Below, piece by piece: positions 49,135 through 64,000 of a DNA stretch of 64,000 nt. Numbering within the stretch: the first letter of the stretch is position 1; the number at the start of each line of letters is the position of its first letter. The translations under genes and the position numbers were made by a program. The stretch comes from Escherichia coli (lineage in GTDB: Bacteria > Pseudomonadota > Gammaproteobacteria > Enterobacterales > Enterobacteriaceae). The notes below the pieces were generated by a model, which made no database searches, was not told where the DNA came from, and saw nothing but the letters and a program-made list of their open reading frames with translations. The DNA lies in assembly GCF_003019035.1 (NCBI RefSeq), contig NZ_CP027447.1. The stretch is one strand, 5' to 3'.

Positions 49135-52100
49135 TCAGCTGATACTGATGCCTGCGGTGGCTTTCTTCATCACCACAACCAGCAAATCGCTGATACTTGC
49201 TGTGGGATACCAGTCATTTACCAGCCATGCTGACACCGAAAACTCCAGCGTCATGTGGCCGTGACCAGCTGGCATATCAATAACACCACTGTAAATCAGC
49301 GTATTATCCAGCGCGGTACGGTTATAAATTTCAGCACCATTTTTCTTCACTATCAGGCGGCATGACGAATAAATATCGTTATTCTCCCGCTCATGTTTAG
49401 CGCCGCAGAATGCCACCGCCGGAATAACAATTTGCCTGTCAAAAGGCTGATCGTCATAAATCCTGACGGTAATGGTCCCTGATGGCCACCGCTCCGGTGC
49501 CCGGGAGTCCCGCGGGAAAGCCTTACCCACTGTTTTGACAATATCGCCTTCAATCTGGTTGGCTGACAGTTTCCCTTTAATCTGACAGTTCTCATTTATC
49601 GTAACGTTGTTGAGCGTCCCGGAGTTCGCATTCACACTGCCACTGATATCCGCATTTTTAGCGGTCAGCTTTCCGTCTGATGTCAGGGAAAATACCGGAG
49701 GACTGCCTCCGCTGGTAATGGTGGGTGCCGTCAGGCGTTTCAGGAACACGTCGTTCATGAATATCTGGTTGCCCTGCGCCACAAACATCGGCGTTTCATT
49801 CCCGTTTGCCGGGTCAATAAACGCGATACGGTTAGCGGCAACCAGAAACTGGCTCAGTTTGCCTTCCTCCGTGTCCTCCATGCTGAGGCCAATACCCGCG
49901 ACATAATGTTTGCCGTCTTTGGTCTGCTCAATTTTGACAGCCCACATGGCATTCCACTTATCGTTGGCGTCCTTCCACTCTTTCGAAAACTCCTCCAGTC
50001 TGCTGGCGTTATCCTCCGTCAGCTCGACTTTTTCCAGCAGCTCCTTGCCGAGATGGGATTCGGTTATCTTGCCTTTGAAAAAATCCAGGTAACCTTCCGC
50101 ATCATCGCTCGCCCGACCGACGGCCTCCACGAATGCCGATTTGCCAACGGTGTTCACACTGCGGATATAAAAGTAATAATCATGGCCCGGTTTGATATTG
50201 ATACTGGCGGCTATCCAGTACAGCCCCGTGCCAAGATAGCGGGCTGTGGTTTCAACCTGCCTGATATCAGTAATCCGCGTTTCCGAGAACCAGAACTCAA
50301 ACTGTACCGTCGGATCGTAAACCGCAAGATGCGGCGTGGCGGTTATCTGAAAATAGCCCGGCGTCAGCTCAATCCGCGACGGCGCTGCCGGTGCGGCAAT
50401 CCGGAACGATACCGACGCCGGATCGCCCTGCTGTCCCCACGCATTTACCGCCCGGACTGTCAGCCTGTAGTTCCCTGGCGCCAGTTGCGTGAAGCGGTAT
50501 GTGGTTTCCGTCGTCCGGGCCGTGCTGACCAGCCGCTCACTGCCGTCATCCGCTGCCACGGTCAGGCGAAGCAGGAAGCTCACGCCCTTCACCACTTTCG
50601 GCGTGTCCCAGCGGGCCAGCACCTGATATTCTCCGCTGTCTGCGGTGACTTCGGCAGTCAGGTGCTGCACCGCTGGCGGCGTGACACCATTCACCGTGCC
50701 GCTCTGGTCGCCGTCAAAGTGCGCCCCGTTATCCACGATGGCCTCTTTTTCCGGCACATGCTGCACGGCGGTGATGGCATACGTGCCGTCATCGTTCTCA
50801 CGGATACTCACGCAGCGGAACAGTCGCTGGCGCAGCGTCGGCAGCTTCAGCCCCCATACGCTGTATTCAGCAACACCGTCAGGAACACGGCTCACTTTTA
50901 CCTTCACGCCGTCGGTGACGGACTGAACCTCCACGCTGACCGGATTGCCACTTCCGTCAACCAGGCTTATCAGCGCGGTACCGGAGGATGGCAGCGTGAT
51001 TTCACGGTCGAGCGTCAGCGTCCGGGTCTGGCTGTTCACCGCCAGCACGCGACCACCGGTACTGATACCGGCATAGTCATCATCGCAGACTTCAATGACG
51101 TCACCCGGTACATGGCGAAGCCCTTCTGCACCCACGCTGAAGTCCACCGTCTGCGTCTCCAGCAGTTCCGTTTTAATCAGCCACAGCCCGGCGCGGTGCG
51201 CCTGCCCCCGGCTGGTACAGCCAAAGGCATCCATCTTCGTGACGTTACGACCGTAACGGGCAATAGCCTGCGTATCTTCAACCAGCTCCGTCGCCGTCTC
51301 CCAGCCGTTGTTCGGGTCAATCCAGTTCACCTCAACGGCATTATGGCGGTCCTTCAGGGCGCTGAAGCTGTAGCGGAACGGCGCGCCATCATCCGGCATC
51401 ACCACATTACTGCGGTTATAGGTCCACACCTTATCTGATGGTCGGTCCTGCACGAACGTCAGCGTCTGCCCGTTCCATACCGGCATACAGCGCATCGCCG
51501 AGCAGAAATCACTGAGCACATCCCACGCCTTGCGCTGCGTGGTCAGGTACGCATTACAGGTGATGCGCGGCTCCGTGCCGCCAAAGCCGTCCGGCACTGA
51601 CTGGTCGCAGTACTGGCCGATGACATACAGCGCCCATTTATCCACATCCGCCGCACCAAGACGTTTCCCCATGCCGTAGCGCGGATGGGTCAGCATATCC
51701 CACAGACACCAGGCCATGTTGTTGCTGTATGCCGGTTTAAACGTTCCGTCCCAGATACCGCTGTATTGCCGCGTCTGCGGGTTATAGTTCGACGGCACCT
51801 GCAGAATGCGCCCGCGAAGATGATAATTACGACTCACCTGCTGGCTGCCGAACTGCTCCGAGTCCACCTGTACACCGACCAGTGCCGTGTTCGGGTAGCC
51901 CTGTTTCACATCGATGATTTCGGTGTATGACGACCAGAGCGTTTTGTTCTGCAGCTGGTCTGTAGTGCTGTCCGGCGTCATCCTGCGCATCCGGATACTG
52001 AACGGGCGCGGCGGCAGGTTACCCACCACCACCGAGGCCAGATACTGCGAGGTGGTTTTACCCTTAATGGTGATGTCTTTTTCTGTCACCCAGGCACCGT

Positions 52101-52530
52101 TACGCTGTATCTGAACCAGCAGGCGGACTTCCGACGGATTCCGGTCACCCTTTGAGGTGGTTTCCACCAGAGCCTGCACACCGAAGGTAAAGCGCAGTCG
52201 GTCGATGTTTGCCGACGTGATGGTCCGGGTGATCGGCGTGTCATATTTCACTTCCGTACCCAGCACCGTCTCGGAGCCGGAGGATTCAAACCCCTCCGGC
52301 GGTGTCTGCTCCTGCTCACCTGCCCGGAACACCACCGTGACACCGGAGATGTTGGTATTCCCCTCAGTGTCCAGCACCGGCGTACTGTTCAGCAGCACGC
52401 TTTTTAATCCATCCACCGGACCTTCAATCGGTCCTTCACTGATGGCATCAATCACACTCAGCAACTGCGTGGACTTCAGGTTGTCCTTCGCTTCGCGCGG
52501 GGTATGCCCCTTACTGCTGCCTTTACCCAT
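49135..52530 (-). CDS. J: tail tip / host specificity protein J
   Basis: 1131 aa; N terminus [24 protein letters not shown] matches lambda J; C-terminal ~150 aa diverge. Confidence 0.93.
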
Positions 52531-52590
52531 TCGTCATGCTCCATAAACGACAAAACCGCCCTGAGGCGGTTTCACATAAAACGTTTTTCA

Positions 52591-53238
52591 TCATCGACCA
52601 ATCACCACAACCTGACCACCGTCCCCTTCGTCTGCCGTGCTGATTTCCTGAGAAACCACACGAGACCCCACACGCATTTCACCGTACAGAACAGGCAGAA
52701 CATTGCCCTGGGCAACCATGTTATCCAGTGATGAAAAATAGGTGTTCTGCTTACCGTTATCCGTGCTGGTCGCTGTGGGCGTCCGGGCTTTCGGTGCCAG
52801 CATCTGGGCCACACCACCCAGGATCATACTGGCCCCTGCCGCATACATGCCCGATACAGCCGCGGCACCCAGCCAGCCCACAGGGTTCCACCATGCCACA
52901 GCAATCAGCGCCGCCCCCAGCACCACCTGAAACACACCGCCACTTTTAGCTCCCGCCAGACGCGGCACGATGTGGATCACGGCACCATTTGCCAGCGGCT
53001 CATTAAGACGGGCAGATAATTCGGTTTCACCTGCATCACGCCCGGCAATGCGCACCTGATACCAGCCGTCATTCAGTTTCTGACGAAACGCCGGGAGCTG
53101 TGTGGACAACGCCAGGATGGCTTCAGCCCCCGTTTTTACACGAAGGTCGATGCGGCGGCCAAATCGTTGTAAATCCCCGTAAAGGCAGATGCGTGCCATG
53201 CCCGGTGACGCCAGAGGGAGTGTGTGCGTCGCTGCCAT
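52591..53238 (-). CDS. I: tail assembly protein I
   Basis: 215 aa, lambda I-like. Confidence 0.9.
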   Translation of the reverse strand: MAATHTLPLASPGMARICLYGDLQRFGRRIDLRVKTGAEAILALSTQLPAFRQKLNDGWYQVRIAGRDAGETELSARLNEPLANGAVIHIVPRLAGAKSGGVFQVVLGAALIAVAWWNPVGWLGAAAVSGMYAAGASMILGGVAQMLAPKARTPTATSTDNGKQNTYFSSLDNMVAQGNVLPVLYGEMRVGSRVVSQEISTADEGDGGQVVVIGR

Positions 53239-53879
53239 TTGTCGGTATACCTCTCTCGTTTGCTCAGTTGTTCAGGAATATGGTGCAACAGCTCACCGTC
53301 GCCGCAGTAAATGGCGGCATGATTCGGCACCGATGAACCAAAACAGCACAACAGCACATCGCCCGGTTGTGCTGATGACAACGGCACCTGATACAGCCCC
53401 GTGGCCTCCAGATTATCCAGATAGAGATTCTGACCGTGACGCCACCAGTCATCCCCGCGATGAAAATCCGGCATCTCAATCCCCGCCAGATGATAAGCAT
53501 CCCGGAACAGCGTGTAACAGTCCGTCACCCCGTGATCAAAGCGCCTTCCGGTCAGATGTGGCACGCAGCGGAATTTATGGAGAGCCCCCCGACAGACCAG
53601 CCACCACGGCAAATCACTCTGTACCTGCAGCTGACGGTCGGCTTCACTCAGCCAGGGCAGACCACCGGGATGGCTGTGGACCAGCGCCACCACCTCGCCC
53701 TGTATTTGTGCCCGCAGCCAGTCTTCCGGTACCATCCGGAAACACGCCTCCGGAGTACCGGAGATATTCACGCAGGGAAGATACCTTTCCCCCTCCGGCG
53801 TTCTCACCACGAAGCCGCACGACTCCGCTGGCGCACATCGCCGGGCGTGCGCCAGAATCGCTGATTCAGTCTCTGTCAT
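53136..53879 (-). CDS. K: tail tip assembly protein K (NlpC/P60 + JAB/MPN)
   Basis: ORF trimmed to MTETESAIL; lambda K-like; overlaps start of I. Confidence 0.88.
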   Translation of the reverse strand: MTETESAILAHARRCAPAESCGFVVRTPEGERYLPCVNISGTPEACFRMVPEDWLRAQIQGEVVALVHSHPGGLPWLSEADRQLQVQSDLPWWLVCRGALHKFRCVPHLTGRRFDHGVTDCYTLFRDAYHLAGIEMPDFHRGDDWWRHGQNLYLDNLEATGLYQVPLSSAQPGDVLLCCFGSSVPNHAAIYCGDGELLHHIPEQLSKRERYTDKWQRRTHSLWRHRAWHASAFTGIYNDLAAASTFV

Positions 53880-53883
53880 GGAT

Positions 53884-54582
53884 TTACTGCGAAAGTTTGT
53901 TAATGGAAAGGAAGCCGCCAAAGTTGCCGACGTTATTGCGAAACTTACAGCCACTCAGGCATTTGCTGCATTTATCCTTCGTGATATCGGACGTCGGCTG
54001 GTCATATTCATCCGCGACCGCCGGACCGTTATAACCGCACTCATCGCCTCGATAGGTCCAGGTGCAGGTGTTGGCCAGCATGATACGGCCCGGAAAAACA
54101 GCGCCATCCGTTTCCGTCGGTGTGGACAGTACAAAAGAGGCACTGACCGCACTCAGTTCGCTGCACTGCTCGATGCGCCAGCGGCTGATCACCTCCTGCT
54201 CCGGATCGGCGTCACTGTTTCCGTTGACGAAGTTCACCGCATCCAGAAAACGGGCGTAAACCTTACGCCGGACCACCGTTCCGCCGACCAGACTCTGCAG
54301 ATCTTCCGCCATCCCGGTGACCATGCCGTGCAGATTAGAGACTTTCAGCGTTGGCCTTGCACTGGCTCCTTTGCCGTTCATCTCAAATCCACTTCCCTGA
54401 ATGGGATAGGCCTGATACTGCCGCCCCTGCCAGGTGACTGGTTCACCTTTTTCGTTCTGCTCATTACAGAAGAAATAACGATCTCCGCCGACCTCTGTCA
54501 GATCAATTTCCCAGAGCACGACCAGCGCGGATTGCTCCGCTTTTGTACACTCATTCAGTGTTTCCTGCTGTATATCCTGCAT
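53884..54582 (-). CDS. L: minor tail protein L
   Basis: 232 aa, lambda L-like. Confidence 0.92.
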   Translation of the reverse strand: MQDIQQETLNECTKAEQSALVVLWEIDLTEVGGDRYFFCNEQNEKGEPVTWQGRQYQAYPIQGSGFEMNGKGASARPTLKVSNLHGMVTGMAEDLQSLVGGTVVRRKVYARFLDAVNFVNGNSDADPEQEVISRWRIEQCSELSAVSASFVLSTPTETDGAVFPGRIMLANTCTWTYRGDECGYNGPAVADEYDQPTSDITKDKCSKCLSGCKFRNNVGNFGGFLSINKLSQ

Positions 54583-54881
54583 CAGTGAGTGACCTCTTCA
54601 AAGGTACAGTTAAAATCGGTATACATGGCATTATCCGAAATACTCCACTCCCTGCAGACAACCCGGACGATTCTGTTGTGTTTTGGCGGACGCCACAAAA
54701 AAGCACGTATCCCGGCATGACGGGATAAAAAACTGTCCAGCGCAGCACGGGAATATTCATCTGTGACACGAAACACCGGTTTAAACGTTTTCAGATCCGC
54801 ATTCAGACCACCAGCCCGTCGCTGTTCATATCCGTCACCGAACTTTACCGTAATAACAGATGGCTTTCGTGTCGTCTCCAT
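54582..54881 (-). CDS. M: minor tail protein M
   Basis: lambda M-like motif VKFGDGYEQRRAGGLNADLKTF; start trimmed to ATG 54881, downstream of the H stop. Confidence 0.85.
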   Translation of the reverse strand: METTRKPSVITVKFGDGYEQRRAGGLNADLKTFKPVFRVTDEYSRAALDSFLSRHAGIRAFLWRPPKHNRIVRVVCREWSISDNAMYTDFNCTFEEVTH

Positions 54882-54915
54882 CCCCTCGCGGGGGATCCAG
54901 TTAAAAACTTCAGGC

Positions 54916-57900
54916 TCAGGCACTGTATAATCCTCCGTCCCGACGTGATGACTGCATAATTGACACAACCCTGCTGTCGATCAGATCCACCAGCCCCCTG
55001 GCTGACTGCGTATCTATCTCGCCATTGCTCCCTTTATTCTGAATACTGATGTGATACACGGGAGAATAGACAAATCCGCCGCCACCATTCACATTGCCAA
55101 TGGCTCTGACCCCAAGAGAGCCGTCCGCTGCCCGCGTCAGTGGCATGATAGCTTCAGGCCCGGCCTCGCCCATCAGTCCGGCACCTTTCGCAAAAGCAAA
55201 ATACGTCGGCGTATCCACAATAGTGTTACTGTAAGCACTCAGATTTGCCGATGTGTAAACACCACCTTTTGCGTTTGCTACTGCCCCCGAAATCCATCCG
55301 CCTACCGTACCAAGCCACCCTCCGGCGCCGGAGAGTGATTTCAGTCCGTTAACAATGGCCGCATTCATCAGAATTTTTGAAACTTCCTGGAGAACTGAAC
55401 TCCCCCAGTTCCTCCAGTCAACAACATTCCCGGCCAGTGCATCGGAAATATTTGATACCAGCCCGTCCATGGTGGAAACGACAGCATCTGCCGCCTGCGA
55501 AGCATAATCAGTGGCACTGTCTGCCCAGTTCGTCAGCCCCTCCTGGAGTCCGGCATTCCAGTTACTGCGTAAAGCATCAGCCTTTGCATAATAATCCTGC
55601 TGATCGCTGAGACGCTCTTCCAGATATTTTTTATTCAGTTCTTTCTCCTGTTTCCACAGGGCTTCTTCAATTTCTCCGGCCTGATACTGTCTCAGCAGCT
55701 CGTTATTTTTCTGCTCAAACGTCTGCCGGATACTCCACATTTCCTGGAGTCGTTCACGCATCCGTGAGCCTTCACCATATCCCAGCAACTGCGCGTCGTC
55801 AGATGCCCGGGCACTGGCATTACTGTCCGCCAGACTGCTCTCATACGCAGCAAGCTGCTCACGAATCTTTTTCTGGTCGATGAGTGCTGCATTCTGCAAA
55901 AGCGTTTTTTTCTGCGCTTCTGACAGGGTTGATAATTCGCCCTGACTGACCTGATATTTCATCTTAGCCAGTTCAGTATTCTGCCCTGCCAGTGCTATCT
56001 GCTCTTTCTGCTGTTTAATCAGCCGTTTATAAATATCTTCTGTTTTTTCCGCCTCGGTCTTTTTATGCGCTTTGGGTTTATTTGCCTGATTATTTCGCCA
56101 TGCATCCAGTGAGTTATTTATATAATTCAGTCTTGCTGTCTGATATGCCTCTCCCACAAAGCCGAGATCATCCGCAGCATAACCCAGGCGGGCACGCTCA
56201 CGGGCTTCCCCCTTCAGGCGGGACAGAGCCAGTTCGCGCTCGCTGTTATTCAGTGCGGTCTGCTGTTTATCATCCAGGGTTGCCTGTGGCAGCCGTAACG
56301 GTACATTCACCAGCCCCTGACGCTGCTGAAGTAACTCATTACCAAGCCCGAGAAGGCGATTAAACTCGGTATGCTGCCCATTCATGATCAACAGGGACTG
56401 ATACGCTTTGTTTTGTTCCGCTGCCTGTTGACGGATCAACGCAACCCGCCGCTCCTCCAGCCCGGCAAGCACATCCTGAATGGATTGCGCTTTGCCCTGC
56501 ATTTGTGTGAGGCGAGACTGTTCAACTGCCAGTTGATTTGTTGCTTCGGCAAGCCCTTCTGTGACAGTTTTTACCGACGTCATGTGGTTAATCATAAAAC
56601 CGTTATCGGTTGTCCAGCCCGGGTTTGCCAGCACGTACTGATAGCCAGCAATTTTTTCCTGTAAGGATTTAATCTTACTTTTCTGCTCGTCAATTAACCT
56701 GTTCTGCTCCTTCAGTGCCTGCCGCGTCTTTTCCTCATTATCTGACGCTTCAGGAAGCGACATTGCCGACGTTTTCTGGCGAATTTCGTCGATTGTTGCG
56801 GCATACTGGCGTGCAGATTCTCTGGCCTGCTCCTGATTCTGATACATCGTGTACCAGGCCGCGGCCCCCAGCATGACAAGCCCCGGCACACCCCCAACCA
56901 GTCCCAGTGCTCCACTTAACAGACGACTCCCCGCTGACGTGACAGTATTCAGCGTTGTCTGTGCTGCTGTTCTGGCCGCAATATTACGGGTAAGTGATGC
57001 CTGGGCAGCAGCCAGTTTCGCTTCTGCGGCTGCCTGCCTTTCGGTACCGCGAGCAGCAACAACCGCCTGTTGCGCACGATAAACCGCCGCACGCGCCCTG
57101 GCTGTTGCTATCTGTGTCCCCCGAAGTTGCGCTTCCGCAAGAGCCACTTCGTTTCTGGCTGCAGTAATTAATCCGGCAGTTGCAGATCCAGCAGAAGACG
57201 CCATATTGCCAAAATATCGGGCTACCCCGACGGCAACCAGAGCACCGGCAGCGGTTGCCACAGTGTCAATATTGCCTGCAATACCATTCAGCACACCAGA
57301 GAGCGTCTTTGTCACTCCGCTTGCCTCGTTCGCACCACCAACCCAGGCCATAAAGGCGTTTTCAACTTTGGTTGCAGAGGATGAAACAGTATCAGGCATT
57401 GCTGCATATTCATCACGTAACGCCCCAAGCTGACTAATCAGTGCAGGAACAACCTTATCGGCGGTCAGTTTTCCGTTATCCGCCATGGCCTTCAGATCCT
57501 TACGGGCAACACCCATTCCCGCAGCCAGCGCACGAATAACACGATCGCCGTTCTCATTCACAGAGTTAAATTCTTCACCGCGCAGCACTCCCTGCGCCAG
57601 TGCCTGACTGAACTGCGTGATCACCGAACTGGCTTCTGCTGTACTGGCACCGGATAATTTCAGCCCCGTGGAGATCGCCTCGGTGACTTTCAGTACCTCC
57701 TCAGAACTGTAGCCATACTCCCGCATGGAAGCTGCAGAGCGGGCAAAAAGGCTGGCGTTATCCGAAAACGCCGTCCCCGTTCTCTGGCTGATTGCCATTA
57801 ATTCACGTTGTGATGCCTGAAAATCATCACTGGACTGCGTGGCCTGCTTCAGACGGGCATTGACTGAATTCCACTCATCGGCGAGAGAAATAAGATGACC

Positions 57901-58149
57901 GGTAGCAAAAGCCCCGGCAAATGCCTCCGCCATATTCAGTGCCGAAGACTTAGCTGTATTTATCTGATCCGTCACTTCTACCAGTGCACGCCGCATTTCA
58001 CGGGATGCTGCAGCGGACTGTCGGCCTCCGTTCTGCATGGTGCGGTAGTAATCCTGCCCCATGCGCGAAGCCCGGGCGATCTCTGACTGGAATGACCGGG
58101 AGTTTGCCGAGATTTTAATAATCAGTTCACGTAATGTCGCCACACTCAT
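54916..58149 (-). CDS. H: tail tape measure protein
   Basis: 1077 aa, Ala/Gln-rich coiled-coil, position between GT and M. Confidence 0.92.
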   Translation of the reverse strand: MSVATLRELIIKISANSRSFQSEIARASRMGQDYYRTMQNGGRQSAAASREMRRALVEVTDQINTAKSSALNMAEAFAGAFATGHLISLADEWNSVNARLKQATQSSDDFQASQRELMAISQRTGTAFSDNASLFARSAASMREYGYSSEEVLKVTEAISTGLKLSGASTAEASSVITQFSQALAQGVLRGEEFNSVNENGDRVIRALAAGMGVARKDLKAMADNGKLTADKVVPALISQLGALRDEYAAMPDTVSSSATKVENAFMAWVGGANEASGVTKTLSGVLNGIAGNIDTVATAAGALVAVGVARYFGNMASSAGSATAGLITAARNEVALAEAQLRGTQIATARARAAVYRAQQAVVAARGTERQAAAEAKLAAAQASLTRNIAARTAAQTTLNTVTSAGSRLLSGALGLVGGVPGLVMLGAAAWYTMYQNQEQARESARQYAATIDEIRQKTSAMSLPEASDNEEKTRQALKEQNRLIDEQKSKIKSLQEKIAGYQYVLANPGWTTDNGFMINHMTSVKTVTEGLAEATNQLAVEQSRLTQMQGKAQSIQDVLAGLEERRVALIRQQAAEQNKAYQSLLIMNGQHTEFNRLLGLGNELLQQRQGLVNVPLRLPQATLDDKQQTALNNSERELALSRLKGEARERARLGYAADDLGFVGEAYQTARLNYINNSLDAWRNNQANKPKAHKKTEAEKTEDIYKRLIKQQKEQIALAGQNTELAKMKYQVSQGELSTLSEAQKKTLLQNAALIDQKKIREQLAAYESSLADSNASARASDDAQLLGYGEGSRMRERLQEMWSIRQTFEQKNNELLRQYQAGEIEEALWKQEKELNKKYLEERLSDQQDYYAKADALRSNWNAGLQEGLTNWADSATDYASQAADAVVSTMDGLVSNISDALAGNVVDWRNWGSSVLQEVSKILMNAAIVNGLKSLSGAGGWLGTVGGWISGAVANAKGGVYTSANLSAYSNTIVDTPTYFAFAKGAGLMGEAGPEAIMPLTRAADGSLGVRAIGNVNGGGGFVYSPVYHISIQNKGSNGEIDTQSARGLVDLIDSRVVSIMQSSRRDGGLYSA

Positions 58150-58160
58150 TCTCCGGACGA

Positions 58161-58185
58161 AAAAAAACCGCCGAAGCGGTTTTTG
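58161..58185 (-). terminator. intrinsic terminator closing the moron, immediately upstream of the tape measure start
   Basis: minus strand aaccgc ttcg gcggtt hairpin followed by seven T. Confidence 0.65.
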
Positions 58186-58191
58186 TATTCT

Positions 58192-58344
58192 TTAAAGAAG
58201 TCCGGCCTTACGCCTTGCTTCCTGAAGATATTCATCATCCGTTTTTTGTGAAACGGAACTATCTGCATTGCAAATTAAATCACTACCGCAATGCTTACAT
58301 TTAATCACCTCTTCTTTGTTCGGGTCTGCACAGGGATTCTTCAT
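58192..58344 (-). CDS. hypothetical small Cys-rich protein (50 aa), moron gene
   Basis: MKNPCADPNKEEVIKCKHCGSDLICNADSSVSQKTDDEYLQEARRKAGLL; starts 8 nt after the upstream ORF stop; no clear SD. Confidence 0.4.
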   Translation of the reverse strand: MKNPCADPNKEEVIKCKHCGSDLICNADSSVSQKTDDEYLQEARRKAGLL

Positions 58345-58352
58345 GTCATTGT

Positions 58353-58526
58353 TTACCATTTGTTATTCATATGGCTTCTCATTTCCAGGATTACAAGTGA
58401 ATGGATCAGAGCAACAATAAAGATCATCGAGCCATATATCCACCACCTTAAAAATGAGCAACCTTTGCTTTTCGTGATAATCGCCGGAATCAGCCCTAAA
58501 ATTATTGAAATAAGTACGAATTCCAT
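58353..58526 (-). CDS. hypothetical small membrane protein (57 aa), moron gene; candidate superinfection-exclusion protein
   Basis: SD AAGGAGG 5 nt before ATG; product MEFVLISIILGLIPAIITKSKGCSFLRWWIYGSMIFIVALIHSLVILEMRSHMNNKW with two hydrophobic segments. Confidence 0.55.
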   Translation of the reverse strand: MEFVLISIILGLIPAIITKSKGCSFLRWWIYGSMIFIVALIHSLVILEMRSHMNNKW

Positions 58527-58583
58527 CGATGCCTCCTTACTTACTCAATAAAACGGGAATAATAATTCAGTTATGTGGAAAAT

Positions 58584-58874
58584 TCATCGGGATGCAACAA
58601 ATAACGCCCTCTCAATCTCAGCAAGTGGATCGCCCATATTATTTTCACAGGCGCATTCCCACTGAAGAAGTGCATCATTCAGTGGAACTTTAACCCCCTG
58701 CGCACCGTAAACAGCTGAAACAATCTGGGCAGCACGGATATCAGCCCGTTCGTCCCCCAGCGGGCTGAACCTGTCAAATTCTGCCCACATCATGATTTCT
58801 GATGCGGACATTTCCCGGCGTAATTCTGACAATGTACGCCCCATCCTGAGTGCCAGCATCATCAGAAAACGCAT
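58584..58874 (-). CDS. T: tail assembly chaperone T segment (made as G-T fusion by -1 frameshift)
   Basis: ORF in the -1 frame relative to G, open from the slippery site; lambda G/GT paradigm. Confidence 0.8.
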   Translation of the reverse strand: MRFLMMLALRMGRTLSELRREMSASEIMMWAEFDRFSPLGDERADIRAAQIVSAVYGAQGVKVPLNDALLQWECACENNMGDPLAEIERALFVASR

Positions 58875-58885
58875 CCCCGGAAGCG

Positions 58886-59272
58886 CTACTTTTTTTTAAC
58901 CTCGCCGGCATCACTGATCAGTTCCAGAGACTGCCGAAGAAGCCGCGCATGCACCGGGCCATACACGGCAATCACCTGTTCACGATCATCCTCTGAAAAT
59001 ACAGGTTGCAGTCCGGTATCACACAGAACATCAATGAACAGTTCAACATCTGCCTCCAGATTTCGGCGGGCGCGCTCCGCAACGGATAACGGTGTCTCAT
59101 CATCTTTTGCTTTAACGATCTCCTGCCAGCGCAACCAGGCTTCTGCAGAAGGTTCCCGTAATACAACCGTTGCTCCTTCCCATTCAGGCACATCAACAGT
59201 TTTATGGCGAAACCCCGACATCGTTGCCAGTGCCAGATTACGGATATTTTTAGTCATCACACCCATCCTCAT
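58886..59272 (-). CDS. G: tail assembly chaperone G
   Basis: 128 aa acidic protein between the major tail gene and T. Confidence 0.85.
   Translation of the reverse strand: MRMGVMTKNIRNLALATMSGFRHKTVDVPEWEGATVVLREPSAEAWLRWQEIVKAKDDETPLSVAERARRNLEADVELFIDVLCDTGLQPVFSEDDREQVIAVYGPVHARLLRQSLELISDAGEVKKK
58889..58895 (-). promoter_or_regulatory. programmed -1 ribosomal frameshift slippery heptamer A AAA AAG
   Basis: G frame ends GAG GTT AAA AAA AAG TAG; shifting back one nt reads AAA GTA GCG CTT CCG GGG ATG into the T ORF. Confidence 0.75.
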
Positions 59273-59976
59273 TAACTGACGGTTACAGTGCAGGAAGTGG
59301 AGGTCACTTTGTTAACCGGGCTTGCTGAATCAGAAATCTCGCAGGTATATGCGCCCGCATCACCGGATACTGCCAATGCCTTACTGAACGTTGCCGCCGT
59401 CTGTCCGGAAACAGGAGAACTACCTTTCTTCCAGACATAAGAATAAGGCGGCACACCTCCGGCAGCCTCAACCACCATTTCGAGTTTCGCTCCGGCAGAA
59501 ACCTGCAGCGTGCTGTTTAAATCGACCTTCACTTTCAGCGGCTCTGTCGCCAGCACAGGTTTACCTTTCAGGCGCAGGGAAAACGTTGCAGCCACAACAC
59601 CATTGGTTCCTGCAGACCAGGTATGCTGACGCACCTCTGCCATAAAGGTAAATCCGTTTCCTGACGGAAAAATAACTTTAAAGCCATACGTGGTGTCATT
59701 GTCATAGGCACTGCGCAACGCGTTCTGGGCAGCATTGAGGTAAAAGTTGCCTGACATGGAAATCTCTGACGCGGCACCAAGACCGTTAATATTTTCCTGC
59801 TCAACAGAACACAGCGTGGTGACATCAATATCCTGCTTTTGTCCTGCGGTAAACTGCACCTCTTTGATTGTACAGCTCAGGCCAAGATAGCTGGCAGAAT
59901 CCAGGGTTTCTGCTGTTACCGGTGCAGACGAAATCATAATTTTCGTCAGTTGCGAACGCTCAAAATTAGAGGACAT
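59272..59976 (-). CDS. major tail protein with C-terminal Ig-like domain
   Basis: 234 aa; position upstream of G/GT; Ig-like assignment is by eye. Confidence 0.8.
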   Translation of the reverse strand: MSSNFERSQLTKIMISSAPVTAETLDSASYLGLSCTIKEVQFTAGQKQDIDVTTLCSVEQENINGLGAASEISMSGNFYLNAAQNALRSAYDNDTTYGFKVIFPSGNGFTFMAEVRQHTWSAGTNGVVAATFSLRLKGKPVLATEPLKVKVDLNSTLQVSAGAKLEMVVEAAGGVPPYSYVWKKGSSPVSGQTAATFSKALAVSGDAGAYTCEISDSASPVNKVTSTSCTVTVS

Positions 59977-59993
59977 ACTCGTCTCCTGAAAAT

Positions 59994-60015
59994 AAAAAAA
60001 CCCGCCAGCGGCGGG
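59994..60015 (-). terminator. terminator-like hairpin upstream of the major tail gene
   Basis: cccgcc agcg gcggg hairpin followed by a T-run on the minus strand. Confidence 0.45.
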
Positions 60016-60036
60016 TGGGTAAAATCATTAACGACC

Positions 60037-60381
60037 TCAGGCTATTACCTGAAATTCAAGCGTGGCTCTGCTCAGACGGGAATCAGGATCATAACCCTGA
60101 GTTTTAGAAATAACGGAGGGTACAAGTTGCCTTACCGCATCAAGCGCCTGTTCCCGGATATCATCTGCGTCATCAGGCACCGTTGCCCAGACATCGATCT
60201 GCACGGTAATTCTGGATTCAGCCTGACCATCAAGCACATCAGACGCCGTGTCAGACACCACAGAAAACACCAGCCACGGCGGAGATACCGCAGGCTTTCC
60301 CTCCGTCAGCGGGACCACATAAGGATAAACCTGTCCTCCGGCCAACTGAGACAGCAGGGAATACAGTGTGGCTTCCCTCAT
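60037..60381 (-). CDS. tail terminator / tail completion-like protein
   Basis: 114 aa; call is positional (immediately upstream of major tail gene). Confidence 0.6.
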   Translation of the reverse strand: MREATLYSLLSQLAGGQVYPYVVPLTEGKPAVSPPWLVFSVVSDTASDVLDGQAESRITVQIDVWATVPDDADDIREQALDAVRQLVPSVISKTQGYDPDSRLSRATLEFQVIA

Positions 60382-60827
60382 TTACTTAAGACCTCATCAA
60401 TAGCCTGATTCATTCGCTGTATGGCAACCTGCGCCGCCAGCTCCTCTGTCGTATCGAAAGCCGGGCGAATGAATGGATGCGCGGGCATGTTTATCGTTCC
60501 CAGCTCCACAAAGCGCCAGTAAAACGCATTTCGGGGATCGCTGGCTTTCATGCTGTTATCACTGTTTCCGGTTCGTAGGTTCCGTCCGCGAATGTGGACA
60601 CCCGAGATAATTTCCCCCCGACGCTTTGAACGCTGCGTGAGAACAACCACATTTTTCTTCAGTTTCCCGGTTCGCTCCGGCGCACGTTCAACAACTGCAT
60701 CCCGCATAACTTCAGCACCTGCACGGGTGGCATCGCGCAGAACCTTATTGTTTTCTGCCCTGCTGAGCGTCTCCAGATCCCGTGCAATATCCGCCAGGCC
60801 TGAAAAATCAAGACTGAAATCCATCAC
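60378..60827 (-). CDS. HK97 gp10-like head-tail joining protein
   Basis: 149 aa; position and size in an HK97-type module. Confidence 0.6.
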   Translation of the reverse strand: MMDFSLDFSGLADIARDLETLSRAENNKVLRDATRAGAEVMRDAVVERAPERTGKLKKNVVVLTQRSKRRGEIISGVHIRGRNLRTGNSDNSMKASDPRNAFYWRFVELGTINMPAHPFIRPAFDTTEELAAQVAIQRMNQAIDEVLSK

Positions 60828-61162
60828 ACATTCCCCTTCAGGCTGCAGAGTATTTCAAGCCGGGTGGCGCGTGCATCCGGTATTGGTGGCCCTTCTATAC
60901 CAAGAGTGGCCCCTTTAAATGCACCGGTCAGCACTTTCAGACGTGAAGTCGCTGTCACATCGTGCCGAAATCGCATCCAGACTCTGACCGTAGCCTGAGC
61001 GGTTTCTGCACCTCCTGATATTCTCTCCCTCCCGCTGATACCCTTAACTTCTGCCCATACGGTAGCTCCCTCCGTCACCGTCTCCACCGGATGCCCTGAC
61101 GGAGAGCGGGCGGTGGTGACATTCAGAATAGTTACGCGATCACGTAATCTGCCCGCCTGCAT
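60824..61162 (-). CDS. head-tail adaptor / head closure protein
   Basis: 112 aa; positional call. Confidence 0.6.
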   Translation of the reverse strand: MQAGRLRDRVTILNVTTARSPSGHPVETVTEGATVWAEVKGISGRERISGGAETAQATVRVWMRFRHDVTATSRLKVLTGAFKGATLGIEGPPIPDARATRLEILCSLKGNV

Positions 61163-61170
61163 GGTTCCTC

Positions 61171-61533
61171 CTACAAAGGAATAAAACGATAAGGCTCCAG
61201 CAGAGAAGAAAAACCAAACGGGACTGGTGCCTTGCTGACATCTGAGGAATTTTCCCGGTTTTCGTACCAGTGTCCGACCAGCAACATGAGCGCCAACAAA
61301 ACATCATCAGCTATAAGCACCCCTTCAGGATCACCTTCCGGCACCATCTCCTCATAAAGCTTACGGTTGATAAAATTTTCTGCCTTGCGGCAGGCAGCCC
61401 GGAAATACAGCATCAGTAACTCATCATCAGTTGCATCATCTGTATCAATACGGCACTGCGCCCTGAGTTTTTCCACTATTGCTGCCATCAGAAACTCCTG
61501 CCCGTAACACTGTGCGGGCATAAAAAACTGCAT
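61171..61533 (-). CDS. gp6-like head-tail connector protein
   Basis: 120 aa directly downstream of the capsid gene; start may be an internal Met. Confidence 0.6.
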   Translation of the reverse strand: MQFFMPAQCYGQEFLMAAIVEKLRAQCRIDTDDATDDELLMLYFRAACRKAENFINRKLYEEMVPEGDPEGVLIADDVLLALMLLVGHWYENRENSSDVSKAPVPFGFSSLLEPYRFIPL

Positions 61534-62756
61534 TACGCAGCGGCTTTCTGGCGGGTTGCAGCACCGATCTTCATCAGCTTAATCGCCTGAGAATCCACCA
61601 GCATACCGCCGGTTCGTTTGGTTGTATAAAAGCCCACAAACGGTTTGTTGGTGTAAGGATCGCGCAGGATGCGGGTGCCGATACGATCAACGATGGTATA
61701 GCCGCGTTTGAAGTTACCAAACGCAATAGCTTTTGCATCGGCAGCAATATCCGGCATCTGCTCATTCTCAACGATGCCATACCCCGCCAGTGAAGAAGGC
61801 TGACCCAGCTCAATGCCCGGACGCCACAGATAATTTCCGTCGTTATCCTTCAGCAGGCGAATGGCAAACAGGCTGCTGTTATTCATCATGAACTTCGCGC
61901 CGCTGCGATGCGCCTTGCGCAGGGTGTAAATCAGTTTAATGATCGCATCGGCAGTCGCGCCAGAAGCCACACCGGAAGCGATGTGCTGAAGTTTGCCAAA
62001 CGCACGGGTCTTGTCATCTTCATCGGTGGACTCATAAGCCAGAAAACCTTTTGGTTTTTTGCTGCCGTCGCCACTGGTAAAGGCAATTTCTTCCTGTTCG
62101 GCAAATTCCAGCGCCAGCTCACTGTTGATCCAGTCTTCCACATTGAAGAAAGCGTCATCGAGCATTTTCTGGGTGGCCTGCGGGTTGCCGTAGATTTCCC
62201 CCATAAAGGGTTCAATCAGCCCCAGTTTTGAGGTGGCGGTTTCCGGACGTGCATCCGTTTCCCCCACCCATCCGGACGTTGTGCCGCCCAGATTCACCAG
62301 TTTTTTATAATCCGAGCCCCCGAGGGTGATCACAGTGGCTTCCTGGCGCATCACCACCTCATCTTTCAGTAGCGTCAGAATGGTGCGATCCAGTTCTTCC
62401 GGAATGGCATAACCGCCATCTTCATCATTGCCCACCTGCAGCGCCTTACGCTCCAGCTCACGCAGGCCGTCTTCACGCCCCTTGCGCATAAATCCGATAA
62501 ACGCTTCTTTGTGTTCACTGGCAACTTTATTTTGCGTGCCGCCTGCCGGACGCTTGATGTCTGCCAGCTCTTTTTCCAGGTCGCTTTTCAGGTTCTCCAG
62601 CTCGCTGATTTGCCCGTTCAGGCTTTCCACCTGTTCGGCCAGCTTGCCTTTTTCCTGTTCGATCGCGTCAATGCGCTTGTCGTTTTTTGCCTTAAAATCG
62701 TCAAACTTCTGCTGCAGCTCCTGCGCGACCTGCTCCACATCTTTAATGTCAGCCAT
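61533..62756 (-). CDS. HK97-family major capsid protein
   Basis: 407 aa with N-terminal coiled-coil delta domain then HK97-fold-like body. Confidence 0.88.
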   Translation of the reverse strand: MADIKDVEQVAQELQQKFDDFKAKNDKRIDAIEQEKGKLAEQVESLNGQISELENLKSDLEKELADIKRPAGGTQNKVASEHKEAFIGFMRKGREDGLRELERKALQVGNDEDGGYAIPEELDRTILTLLKDEVVMRQEATVITLGGSDYKKLVNLGGTTSGWVGETDARPETATSKLGLIEPFMGEIYGNPQATQKMLDDAFFNVEDWINSELALEFAEQEEIAFTSGDGSKKPKGFLAYESTDEDDKTRAFGKLQHIASGVASGATADAIIKLIYTLRKAHRSGAKFMMNNSSLFAIRLLKDNDGNYLWRPGIELGQPSSLAGYGIVENEQMPDIAADAKAIAFGNFKRGYTIVDRIGTRILRDPYTNKPFVGFYTTKRTGGMLVDSQAIKLMKIGAATRQKAAA

Positions 62757-62770
62757 TATTTTTCTCCTGG

Positions 62771-63451
62771 TTAAAATTTAAGATTTTTCAGTGCATTCAG
62801 TGCGGCATCCACATCCTCAGCATCACGCAGGGATAAAGCGCCATATCCCCCGGCCATGAATGCTTTGGCCTGGGTTCGCGAGAGTCCAACATCGCGCAGG
62901 ACTCGCTCAATAATTTTCTGATCAGGGATCTCCCCACGCGCCAGCGCATTTTTCACATCGCTGATGCGTGCCTCATCATTGGAAGGAAACGTCACCAGAC
63001 TGACCTCCCACAGGTCGATCTCTTTCAGCAGGAATACCCCTTTTTCACGGTCGTACTCCCAGTCTTTCAGGATGTAGCCAATAGAAAGGCCGGTTAAAGA
63101 ACCGGCCTTCATATGAGCATGTGCACGTTTTGCCAGGGGATCATCATCAACGAGTAATCGCCCCCTGACATAAAGCCCGACATCATCTTCTTTCATTTCG
63201 GTGTACACACCGATGGGCTCATCCATGCGGTGCTGCCAGAGCAACGCAGGCAGCGCCTTTTTTTCGCTCCATTTCTGGAGTGTTGTGGTAAAGGCACCGG
63301 GGACCACCACATCATCATGGCTGTCCTTAACACCAAAAACAGAGCCGTAACCTTCAAACTCCCCGGAATCACTGACTGATTTCAGGTTCAGCGGTATATC
63401 AAGACGCTGTTTTGTCTGCATCTCCACTCTCCTTTTTCTTACCGTTGCCAT
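62771..63451 (-). CDS. HK97-family prohead maturation protease
   Basis: 226-aa ORF between portal and capsid genes; true start may be ATG at 63421. Confidence 0.8.
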   Translation of the reverse strand: MATVRKRRVEMQTKQRLDIPLNLKSVSDSGEFEGYGSVFGVKDSHDDVVVPGAFTTTLQKWSEKKALPALLWQHRMDEPIGVYTEMKEDDVGLYVRGRLLVDDDPLAKRAHAHMKAGSLTGLSIGYILKDWEYDREKGVFLLKEIDLWEVSLVTFPSNDEARISDVKNALARGEIPDQKIIERVLRDVGLSRTQAKAFMAGGYGALSLRDAEDVDAALNALKNLKF

Positions 63452-64000
63452 TGCCAGCAGAGGGACTGGTGGTCATGTTCATCGGTGTCAGATACACATC
63501 ACCACCCGGTCGGGGATTCATATCCTCCAGATCACGGCAGTCATTAGGGGAATAAATCCCCCAGTTGATCCCCGTGGCATACGCTTCAAAGCGGGATTTC
63601 ATGTCACCACGCAACAACGCCCCGGCATTAAATTTGGCGTAAAATTTTCCCTTTTTATTCTCCCTCACCAGCCCTGTATTGATCCGCTGTTCAATACGGG
63701 TCAGATACGGCACAAGGGAATAGTTAATGAAGCCAAGCCCCAGCTCTTCAATATTGTTGAAGGTGGCGCGGTCAGTGTTCTGCACCATATGCAGTGGCAC
63801 GCGGAAAAGACGACAGATTTCTTCCAGCTGAAACTTGCGGGTTTCCAGGAACTGGCTGTCCTCGGCATTTAGTGCCACCGGCTTCCAGTCCAGCCCCATT
63901 TCCAGAATCATCGGACGGTGCGCATTACCCAGCCCAAGATGACGCTCCTCAAAATCCCTCTTCATGCGCTCATAAGCATCCGGCGTGAGCTTTTGTTCCG
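63399..64000 (-). CDS. portal protein, C-terminal part (5-prime end beyond window)
   Basis: HK97-type portal C-terminal region; frame appears open to position 64000. Confidence 0.75.
   Translation of the reverse strand, partial: EQKLTPDAYERMKRDFEERHLGLGNAHRPMILEMGLDWKPVALNAEDSQFLETRKFQLEEICRLFRVPLHMVQNTDRATFNNIEELGLGFINYSLVPYLTRIEQRINTGLVRENKKGKFYAKFNAGALLRGDMKSRFEAYATGINWGIYSPNDCRDLEDMNPRPGGDVYLTPMNMTTSPSAGNGNGKKKESGDADKTAS

Follow-up and report, generated by a model that had tools for sequence, protein, structure and literature searches.

The window analyzed here is a 64,000-nucleotide stretch of Escherichia coli DNA, and on its minus strand the sequence reads as one unbroken ORF from an ATG at 58149 to a stop codon at 54916-54918, lying between the frameshifted tail assembly chaperone genes G/G-T and the gene for the distal tail protein M (Table 1). 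A chance ORF is unlikely in view of its length and its tape measure matches in Pfam, NCBIfam and PHROG (E about 1e-13 or lower; 1e-13 to 9e-92 for Pfam), and the agreement of the three collections bears out the sequence-only reading of the product as a tape measure protein (TMP). In PHROG the hit is to phrog_339 ('tail length tape measure protein'), with 1329 bits across residues 1-1074. The true start is probably the GTG at 58143, which would give a product of 1075 aa, because relatives of the protein all open with (M)ATLRELIIKISANS, codon 3 is the PGAP start for the 99.9% identical gene of E. coli JNEC-KY180, and the GGAG at 58154-58151 stands 7 nt from GTG 58143 and only 1 nt from ATG 58149.

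Table 1. Features of the tape measure gene and its surroundings, in the direction of transcription (window coordinates).
Feature	Coordinates	Strand	Details
HK97-like shaft and neck genes	59272..61162	minus	Head closure to major tail protein
Head closure	60824-61162	minus	HK97-like
gp10-like	60378-60827	minus	HK97-like
Tail terminator/completion	60037-60381	minus	HK97-like
Major tail protein, Ig-like C-terminus	59272-59976	minus	71% to HK97 gp12
Tail assembly chaperones G (58886-59272) and G-T	58584..59272	minus	G 64% aa to HK97 gp13
Low-GC moron	58150..58583	minus	RBS and ATG 58526; frameshifted gene, membrane protein with zinc ribbon
Tail tape measure protein ORF	54916..58149	minus	1077 codons from first ATG
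N-terminal domain, Pfam TMP_3	57328..57897	minus	Residues 85-274 of 1077-aa ORF; TIGR02675 within
Central helical ruler segment, Pfam Phage_HK97_TLTM	56086..56961	minus	307.9 bits
Strongly hydrophobic Gly-rich membrane-like segment	56851..56925	minus	Residues 407-431, RLLSGALGLVGGVPGLVMLGAAAWY
Lambda-type C-terminal tape measure domain, TIGR01541	55030..55974	minus	Residues 724-1038; 222 bits
Predicted terminal helix	54940..55011	minus	Residues 1045-1068; followed by RDGGL[Y/F]S motif
M, distal tail protein	54582..54923	minus	113 aa; GTG 54923, GGAGG 7 nt upstream
Mosaic joint	54586..54602	minus	High identity to lambda DNA starts in last ~5-25 nt of M, before L
Lambda-like tail tip genes L, K, I, J	49135..54582	minus	92% nt identity to lambda down to 49574
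L	53884-54582	minus	Start ATG 54582; 94% aa to lambda
K	53136-53879/53954	minus	93% aa to lambda
I	52591-53238	minus	78% aa to lambda
J	49135-52530	minus	91% aa to lambda

The tail operon around the gene is intact. Its shaft genes are HK97-like, a −1 slippery heptamer (A AAA AAG, 58895-58889) lies in G/G-T with the T frame continuing to 58584, and the TMP/M and M/L overlaps are coupled, M overlapping the tape measure stop by 8 nt. The whole tail module, M and lambda-like L included, is collinear with those of phi467 (Stx2f), Evi, vB_EcoS-689R5 and the Stx1d prophage of E. coli JNEC-KY180, whose TMPs are 96.5-99.9% identical to that of the window and, through small indels, 1079-1081 aa long instead of 1075; phi467 and JNEC-KY180 share the TMP-M-L arrangement at 94-98% identity. 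Of 5426 complete E. coli genomes, 887 (about one in six) carry a nearly unchanged tape measure, and TMP, M and lambda-like L are contiguous in ~890. A published account calls the structural module of Evi and phi467 frequent among E. coli prophages (PMC6969025). The frameshift in the adjoining moron gene and the fact that the window spans only part of a prophage would suit a decaying remnant of a defective prophage that makes no functional tail. This is quite unlikely, since every gene from head closure to J is open, with RBSs, coupled overlaps and frameshift signal preserved, and TMPs 96.5-98% identical to that of the window are present in sequenced phage records (phi467, Evi, vB_EcoS-*), one of which, Evi, was isolated as a coliphage (PMC6969025).

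Three Pfam domains follow one another along the protein. The match to PF06120 (Phage_HK97_TLTM), for which the curated threshold is 24 bits, spans profile positions 1-292 of 295 (E = 8.7e-92), and the C-terminal region matches both PF09718 (Tape_meas_lam_C; E = 1.3e-13) and TIGR01541, whose cutoff is 104.75 bits. Residues 407-431 are the sole strongly hydrophobic, membrane-like segment, kept at 424-447 in HK97 gp16. Inside the C-terminal domain, a Gly-rich stretch at 55240-55353, spanning residues 931-968, parallels the Gly-rich cleavage region of lambda gpH (PMC12617516). The terminal helix corresponds to gpH 818-849, a coiled coil gripped by the gpI tripod (PMC10721106; PMC12617516), the RDGGL[Y/F]S motif is common to both proteins, and the window protein aligns to residues 510-849 of chain H in PDB 8iyk. 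An AlphaFold2 model built on an 8-sequence alignment, from which we used secondary structure alone because confidence was low (mean pLDDT 45.7), has 77% helix overall and 85% over residues 1-937. With a Pro content of 1.1%, the protein is thus predicted to be long, mostly alpha-helical and Pro-poor, as ruler proteins are in general. An enzymatic insert (lysozyme or peptidase) was rejected, there being no such Pfam or NCBIfam matches.

Judged by its sequence, the tape measure belongs to the HK97 gp16 family (PF06120/PHROG 339) and is not a lengthened lambda H. HK97 gp16 (1089 aa) has the identical domain order, TMP_3, Phage_HK97_TLTM and Tape_meas_lam_C at matching positions, and is 55% identical over its full length (BLASTP; residues 3-1077 against 1-1084). 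Identity is 84-96% in the first 250 aa, merely 18-30% across residues ~350-700 and 26-60% over the C-terminal 275 aa. Gene order is also alike in HK97 (major tail protein, G/G-T with −1 frameshift, moron slot, TMP, M), whereas its tip genes are unlike the lambda-type L-J of the window, which are 34-35% identical to HK97 L, K and I and 33% to J. Other members are of similar size (HK544, 1085 aa; BP-4795, 1080 aa; phi467, 1079 aa), and among over 6000 protein clusters that carry the name tape measure the best 120 have lengths of 1066-1081 aa.

Lambda gpH has the same role and the same operon position, and its length of 853 aa, as given in the sequence-only reading, is confirmed by NC_001416 (10542..13103). 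The surplus of about 225 aa reported there also holds, at 224 aa for the 1077-codon ORF and 222 for the 1075-aa product; the protein is not a longer version of H, kinship with which, at 26% identity, is confined to the C-terminal ~320 aa. Where the window protein carries TMP_3, lambda H has the unrelated TMP_2 (PF06791, 2.4e-69) followed by Tape_meas_lam_C, and Pfam gave no TMP_2 match in the window tape measure. The N-terminal ~470 aa of gpH thus face a sequence-unrelated, HK97-type ~720 aa, and the C-terminal docking domain (~315 aa) is common to both. Because TIGR01541 lies at 724-1038 here and at 472-813 in lambda H, all of the surplus precedes the shared domain, most of it in the Phage_HK97_TLTM segment, of which lambda H has no counterpart. 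Since the upstream neighbors, from head closure to G/G-T, are HK97-like, 1075 aa is a normal length for the module, and the excess over H is not unusual, as the two proteins come from different, well-known families.

By analogy with lambda gpH, the G and G-T chaperones would hold several mostly alpha-helical copies of the TMP extended, with their C-termini anchored in the tip complex (M ring, L, I and J), and the major tail protein would polymerize around them. Because polymerization would run until the N-terminal end of the TMP is reached, tube length would scale with protein length. After adsorption the TMP would be expelled and help to build a DNA channel across the cell envelope, as lambda gpH* forms a trans-envelope channel. 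We infer this ruler and channel role for the window protein, in which the HK97-type N-terminal ~720 aa replace the ~470 aa of lambda and the docking domain is the one shared with lambda. The C-terminal helix of gpH docks on the gpI trimer (PMC10721106; PMC12617516), and in the window a gpI tripod region nearly identical to that of lambda, together with the RDGGL[Y/F]S end of the TMP, speaks for compatibility with a lambda-type tip.

By the ruler rule, the tail is likely to be longer than that of lambda. With a ruler constant of 0.145-0.15 nm per aa (PMC5099701) and a lambda tube of 32 rings of 4.28 nm (PMC8718954), the tube works out at about 156-173 nm (~40 rings), compared with ~137 nm (32 rings) for lambda. 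This estimate is reasonable because the helical ruler part, ahead of the C-terminal domain shared with lambda, accounts for every extra residue. The literature searched yielded no measured tail length for HK97, phi467, BP-4795 or the lineage of the window. Juhala et al. 2000 reportedly noted longer HK97 tails, and this forms no part of the estimate. The added residues might instead serve injection or the channel and contribute no length, leaving a tail about as long as that of lambda: tape measures are multifunctional, the HK97 TMP sets the PtsG and FkpA dependence of DNA entry (work cited in PMC5099701), and in TP901-1 ~810 residues of the tape measure, not all of them, count towards length (PMC5099701). 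We regard this as improbable, however, as the surplus falls within sequence with ~85% predicted helix and little Pro or Gly, which is typical of a ruler, and family lengths stay within 1066-1089 aa though segments are only 18-30% identical, a narrow range that is expected if length is under constraint.

Alignment, which had been proposed for locating recombination joints, placed the joint with lambda within the final ~5-25 nt of M. BLAST found 92% nt identity to lambda across 54602-49574, whereas upstream of 54602 it found no similarity to lambda at the nucleotide level. As had been suggested, there is a mosaic joint with lambda, but it lies at the M/L boundary and not at the tape measure. Of the flanking genes described as lambda-like, L, K, I and J are so; M has no nucleotide similarity to lambda, and its protein shows 40% identity with lambda M and 39% with HK97 M. 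The abrupt change in lambda identity near the gene could suggest that a recent, unusual recombination put a foreign TMP into an otherwise lambda-like cluster, with joints at both gene ends. Such an event is very improbable: the upstream genes are HK97-like, no lambda-like V, G and T are present immediately upstream of the TMP in the window, M travels with the TMP, the sole lambda joint is at M/L, and the same TMP-M-L order recurs in ~890 genomes, phi467 and JNEC-KY180. That lambda H itself gained ~225 aa through an internal insertion or duplication, as its shared C-terminal domain and the lambda-like L-J downstream might suggest, has next to no likelihood and is refuted by the alignments, with similarity to lambda H undetectable ahead of residue ~724-755, different N-terminal Pfam families (TMP_3 and HK97_TLTM against TMP_2) and no lambda-like DNA preceding the M/L joint.

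The slot between T and the TMP is occupied by a moron that is found in 17 of the 5426 complete E. coli genomes and is lacking in phi467, in which 81 nt stand in place of the 475 nt of the window. It fits the definition of a moron made for HK97 gene 15, being extra DNA between tail genes with a deviant GC content (41-45%, against ~52% in the flanks) and an intrinsic terminator of its own (58160-58184). A search for a promoter gave at best 9-of-12 consensus matches, not above shuffled expectation. The frame is broken between ORFs at 58353-58526 and 58192-58359; the intact protein, WP_000394908.1, is 113 aa long and combines two membrane helices with a zinc ribbon, and the moron protein had no meaningful match in PADLOC. 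HK97 gp15 sits in the same slot as a different cargo, and identity with it was rejected because the PHROGs differ, the second ORF matching phrog_5031 of gp15 only weakly (E = 0.0013, residues 37-54). We suggest, as a rather doubtful proposal, that the slot has repeatedly taken up genes for small inner-membrane proteins that would hinder tape-measure-mediated DNA entry, the 113-aa protein being a second superinfection exclusion protein unrelated to HK97 gp15; equally doubtful, and separate from this, is the idea that the divergent M and the TMP C-terminus act as adaptors seating an HK97-type tube on a lambda-type tip.

The gene thus very probably encodes the tail length tape measure protein of an HK97-type siphovirus shaft with a lambda-type tip, from a common E. 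coli lambdoid prophage lineage. The protein is already known, as a member of a curated family that is correctly annotated in thousands of genomes and is present in sequenced phage records, and what the analysis usefully adds is a correction, namely that a length comparison with lambda H sets two different families side by side. With the true lambda/non-lambda joint at M/L, the tail of these common E. coli prophages, Stx prophages included, combines an HK97-type shaft with a lambda-type tip. Hybrid tails of this kind could help to map the contacts that need to match for assembly, between the M ring and the tube and between the TMP C-terminus and gpI.

[quoted passage not shown] BLASTP aligns it with HK97 gp16 (1089 aa) across its whole length at 55% identity and with lambda H over the last ~320 residues only, at 26% identity. 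HK97 gp16 has the same three Pfam domains at matching positions, whereas lambda H combines Tape_meas_lam_C with TMP_2. We found that TMP agrees with the HK97-type family on every criterion tested, and that it shares the C-terminal domain of the lambda gpH family while failing on the N-terminal one. PHROG 339, "tail length tape measure protein", also matches it with 1329 bits. The sequence-only reading had the length right, the open reading frame being as it described and exceeding the 853 aa of lambda H (NC_001416) by ~225 residues, but the implied oddity of that length disappears within a family whose members span 1066-1089 aa. Because NCBIfam TIGR01541 covers residues 724-1038 of TMP and 472-813 of lambda H, the non-homologous N-terminal part is ~723 aa in the former and ~471 aa in the latter; the common C-terminal domain is slightly shorter in TMP. 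The entire length surplus is located N-terminal to the shared domain.

Features of the tail region and of TMP (nucleotide positions in window coordinates, domains in TMP residues)
Feature	Position	Strand	Details
Gene order, head part		minus	prohead protease, major capsid protein, head-tail connector
Gene order, continued		minus	head closure, gp10-like, tail terminator/completion
Gene order, further continued		minus	major tail protein (Ig-like C-terminus), G, G-T, ~430-nt low-GC insert
Gene order, tape measure and tip		minus	TMP, M, L, K, I, J
Moron	58150-58583	minus	434 nt, GC 41-45%, between T frame and TMP
Moron RBS and start	ATG 58526	minus	AAGGAGG, strong RBS
Moron intrinsic terminator	58160-58184	minus	abuts TMP RBS
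TMP ORF	ATG 58149 to stop 54916-54918	minus	uninterrupted, 1077 codons
TMP_3	residues 85-274		Pfam
Phage_HK97_TLTM	residues 397-688		Pfam, 307.9 bits
Tape_meas_lam_C	residues 863-934		Pfam

The product is most likely 1075 aa long, starting at GTG 58143, since every relative compared begins (M)ATLRELIIKISANS, PGAP places the start of the 99.9% identical gene in E. coli JNEC-KY180 at codon 3, and the GGAG at 58154-58151 is spaced 7 nt from this GTG and only 1 nt from ATG 58149.

TMP is no new protein, and public records already list it with the correct annotation. Of 5426 complete E. coli genomes, 887 match at least 80% of the length of its DNA, in most cases with 95-99% identity, and more than 6000 clusters of the protein database match its product at E <= 1e-20. 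Each of the top 120 bears the name "phage tail tape measure protein" and measures 1066-1081 aa; two of these clusters comprise 2478 and 3723 members. Copies 96.5-98% identical occur in the phage records of vB_EcoS-689R5 and relatives, phi467, Evi and PhiR49_2; the phi467 record aligns collinearly with the window from 61173 until it ends, with 94-96% identity. The structural module has been described as "frequently encountered in prophages of E. coli" in the Evi paper (PMC6969025). The closest complete-genome match to the tail module is a prophage of JNEC-KY180 (NZ_AP045177.1 2092519-2119752), collinear at 97.7% across all 18 kb compared and 99.9% in TMP; it encodes Stx1d, belongs to a clinical isolate and is integrated beside yodB/zinT. 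The window's prophage end (~45495) adjoins a zinT-like ORF and, given this match, the part of the prophage past position 64000 may carry stx.

The lambda-like appearance of the flanking genes extends to L, K, I and J (94, 93, 78 and 91% protein identity), as had been proposed, but not to M, whose protein identity is 40% with lambda M and 39% with HK97 M. For the proteins from head closure to G, BLASTP (E <= 1e-3) detects no similarity to those of lambda, and their identity with HK97 is 51-80%. At the DNA level, similarity to HK97 is 65-74% over 61135-58672 and in patches of TMP, and identity to lambda is 92% from 54602 to 49574 and absent upstream. The predicted mosaic joint with lambda is therefore real, but it had been placed at TMP and is located at the M/L gene boundary: in the three-way alignment, lambda identity begins within the last ~25 nt of M, and in the population search ~3300 genomes match solely from query position 665 (window 54586, 4 nt short of the start codon of L) onward, in addition to 890 that have the 3' end of TMP followed without a break by M and L. 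M thus goes with TMP, not with lambda.

The head genes at 61533-63451 (minus strand), for prohead protease and major capsid protein, belong to the HK97 fold family but share only 25-35% identity with HK97; downstream of them, the neck and shaft genes reach the higher values given above, and this points to a further module boundary near 61170-61530. The DNA identity to lambda ends at 49574, within the 3' end of J (49135-49574, minus strand); compared with lambda J, the whole protein is ~91% identical and its last 199 aa are 55% identical, most of the difference falling in the final ~140 aa. J contains a second mosaic joint, by which the receptor-binding domain was probably exchanged. For K (53136-53954), the ORF and its PGAP homologue (247 aa, JAB/MPN and NlpC/P60) begin far upstream of the 199-aa K annotated in lambda (NC_001416), and the N-terminal JAB domain falls within the portion that carries no annotation there.

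The moron, the extra DNA upstream of TMP, was found in only 17 of the 5426 genomes and is lacking in phi467. In 16 of the 17, all other E. coli, the slot holds an intact 113-aa protein (WP_000394908.1) with two membrane-like helices and a CxxC...CxxC zinc ribbon; in the window and in JNEC-KY180, 1-nt and 6-nt deletions split the gene, leaving frameshifted ORFs of 57 and 55 aa in the window. The first moron to be described, HK97 gene 15, encodes a superinfection exclusion protein (PMC3594210). It occupies the same slot, but gp15 belongs to a different PHROG. The moron protein has no meaningful match in PADLOC, and its homologues in Salmonella, Klebsiella, Pseudomonas, Microcystis and Marinomonas phages are named "hypothetical protein".

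In the assembly model, which is that of lambda (PMC8718954), the tape measure, carried by the G and G-T chaperones, would anchor in the tip initiator complex, and the major tail protein would polymerise round it until it is covered. The window has several of the features that this model requires. At 58895-58889, G/G-T contains A AAA AAG, the heptamer for a -1 slip that leads to the T frame; TMP overlaps M by 8 nt and M overlaps L by 1 nt. TMP contains 1.1% Pro, and a low-confidence model, used for secondary structure only, predicts residues 1-937 to be ~85% helical, then a Gly-rich stretch without helix and, at 1045-1068, a terminal helix. Residues 818-849 of lambda gpH make up a coiled coil gripped by the gpI tripod (residues 134-222), and gpH is cleaved near its Gly-rich region to gpH*, the trans-envelope channel (PMC10721106, PMC12617516). 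Since the gpI tripod region here is almost identical to that of lambda and the TMP end keeps the motifs N.G.NG.I and RDGGL[Y/F]S, a non-lambda TMP would be able to dock in a lambda-type tip. M forms the distal tail protein ring joining tube and hub (PMC10721106, PMC12617516), and its divergence from both reference phages would be expected of a protein that must fit an HK97-type tube and a lambda-type hub.

The tail is probably longer than that of lambda. With ruler constants of 0.145-0.15 nm per residue (PMC5099701) and the lambda geometry (32 rings, each of 4.28 nm, making ~137 nm with an 853-aa ruler; PMC8718954), 1075 aa correspond to 156-173 nm, or ~40 rings, a value that stays a calculation since no measured tail length for HK97 or the TMP lineage was found in the literature searched.

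Sequence has been exchanged within the TMP gene. Against HK97, residues 1-250 are 84-96% identical, most stretches of 50 residues from 350 to 700 only 18-30%, the part around a conserved hydrophobic segment (401-450) 64%, and residues 700-800 70-80%; against HK544, identity is mostly 90-100% in residues 100-750 (46% at 501-550) and 26-60% in residues 800-1077. A comparison of TMP (54916-58143) with HK97, HK544 and BP-4795 shows blocks of 84-100% identity interspersed with others of 18-50%. Family lengths keep to 1066-1089 aa despite this exchange, the pattern that a constraint on length would produce.
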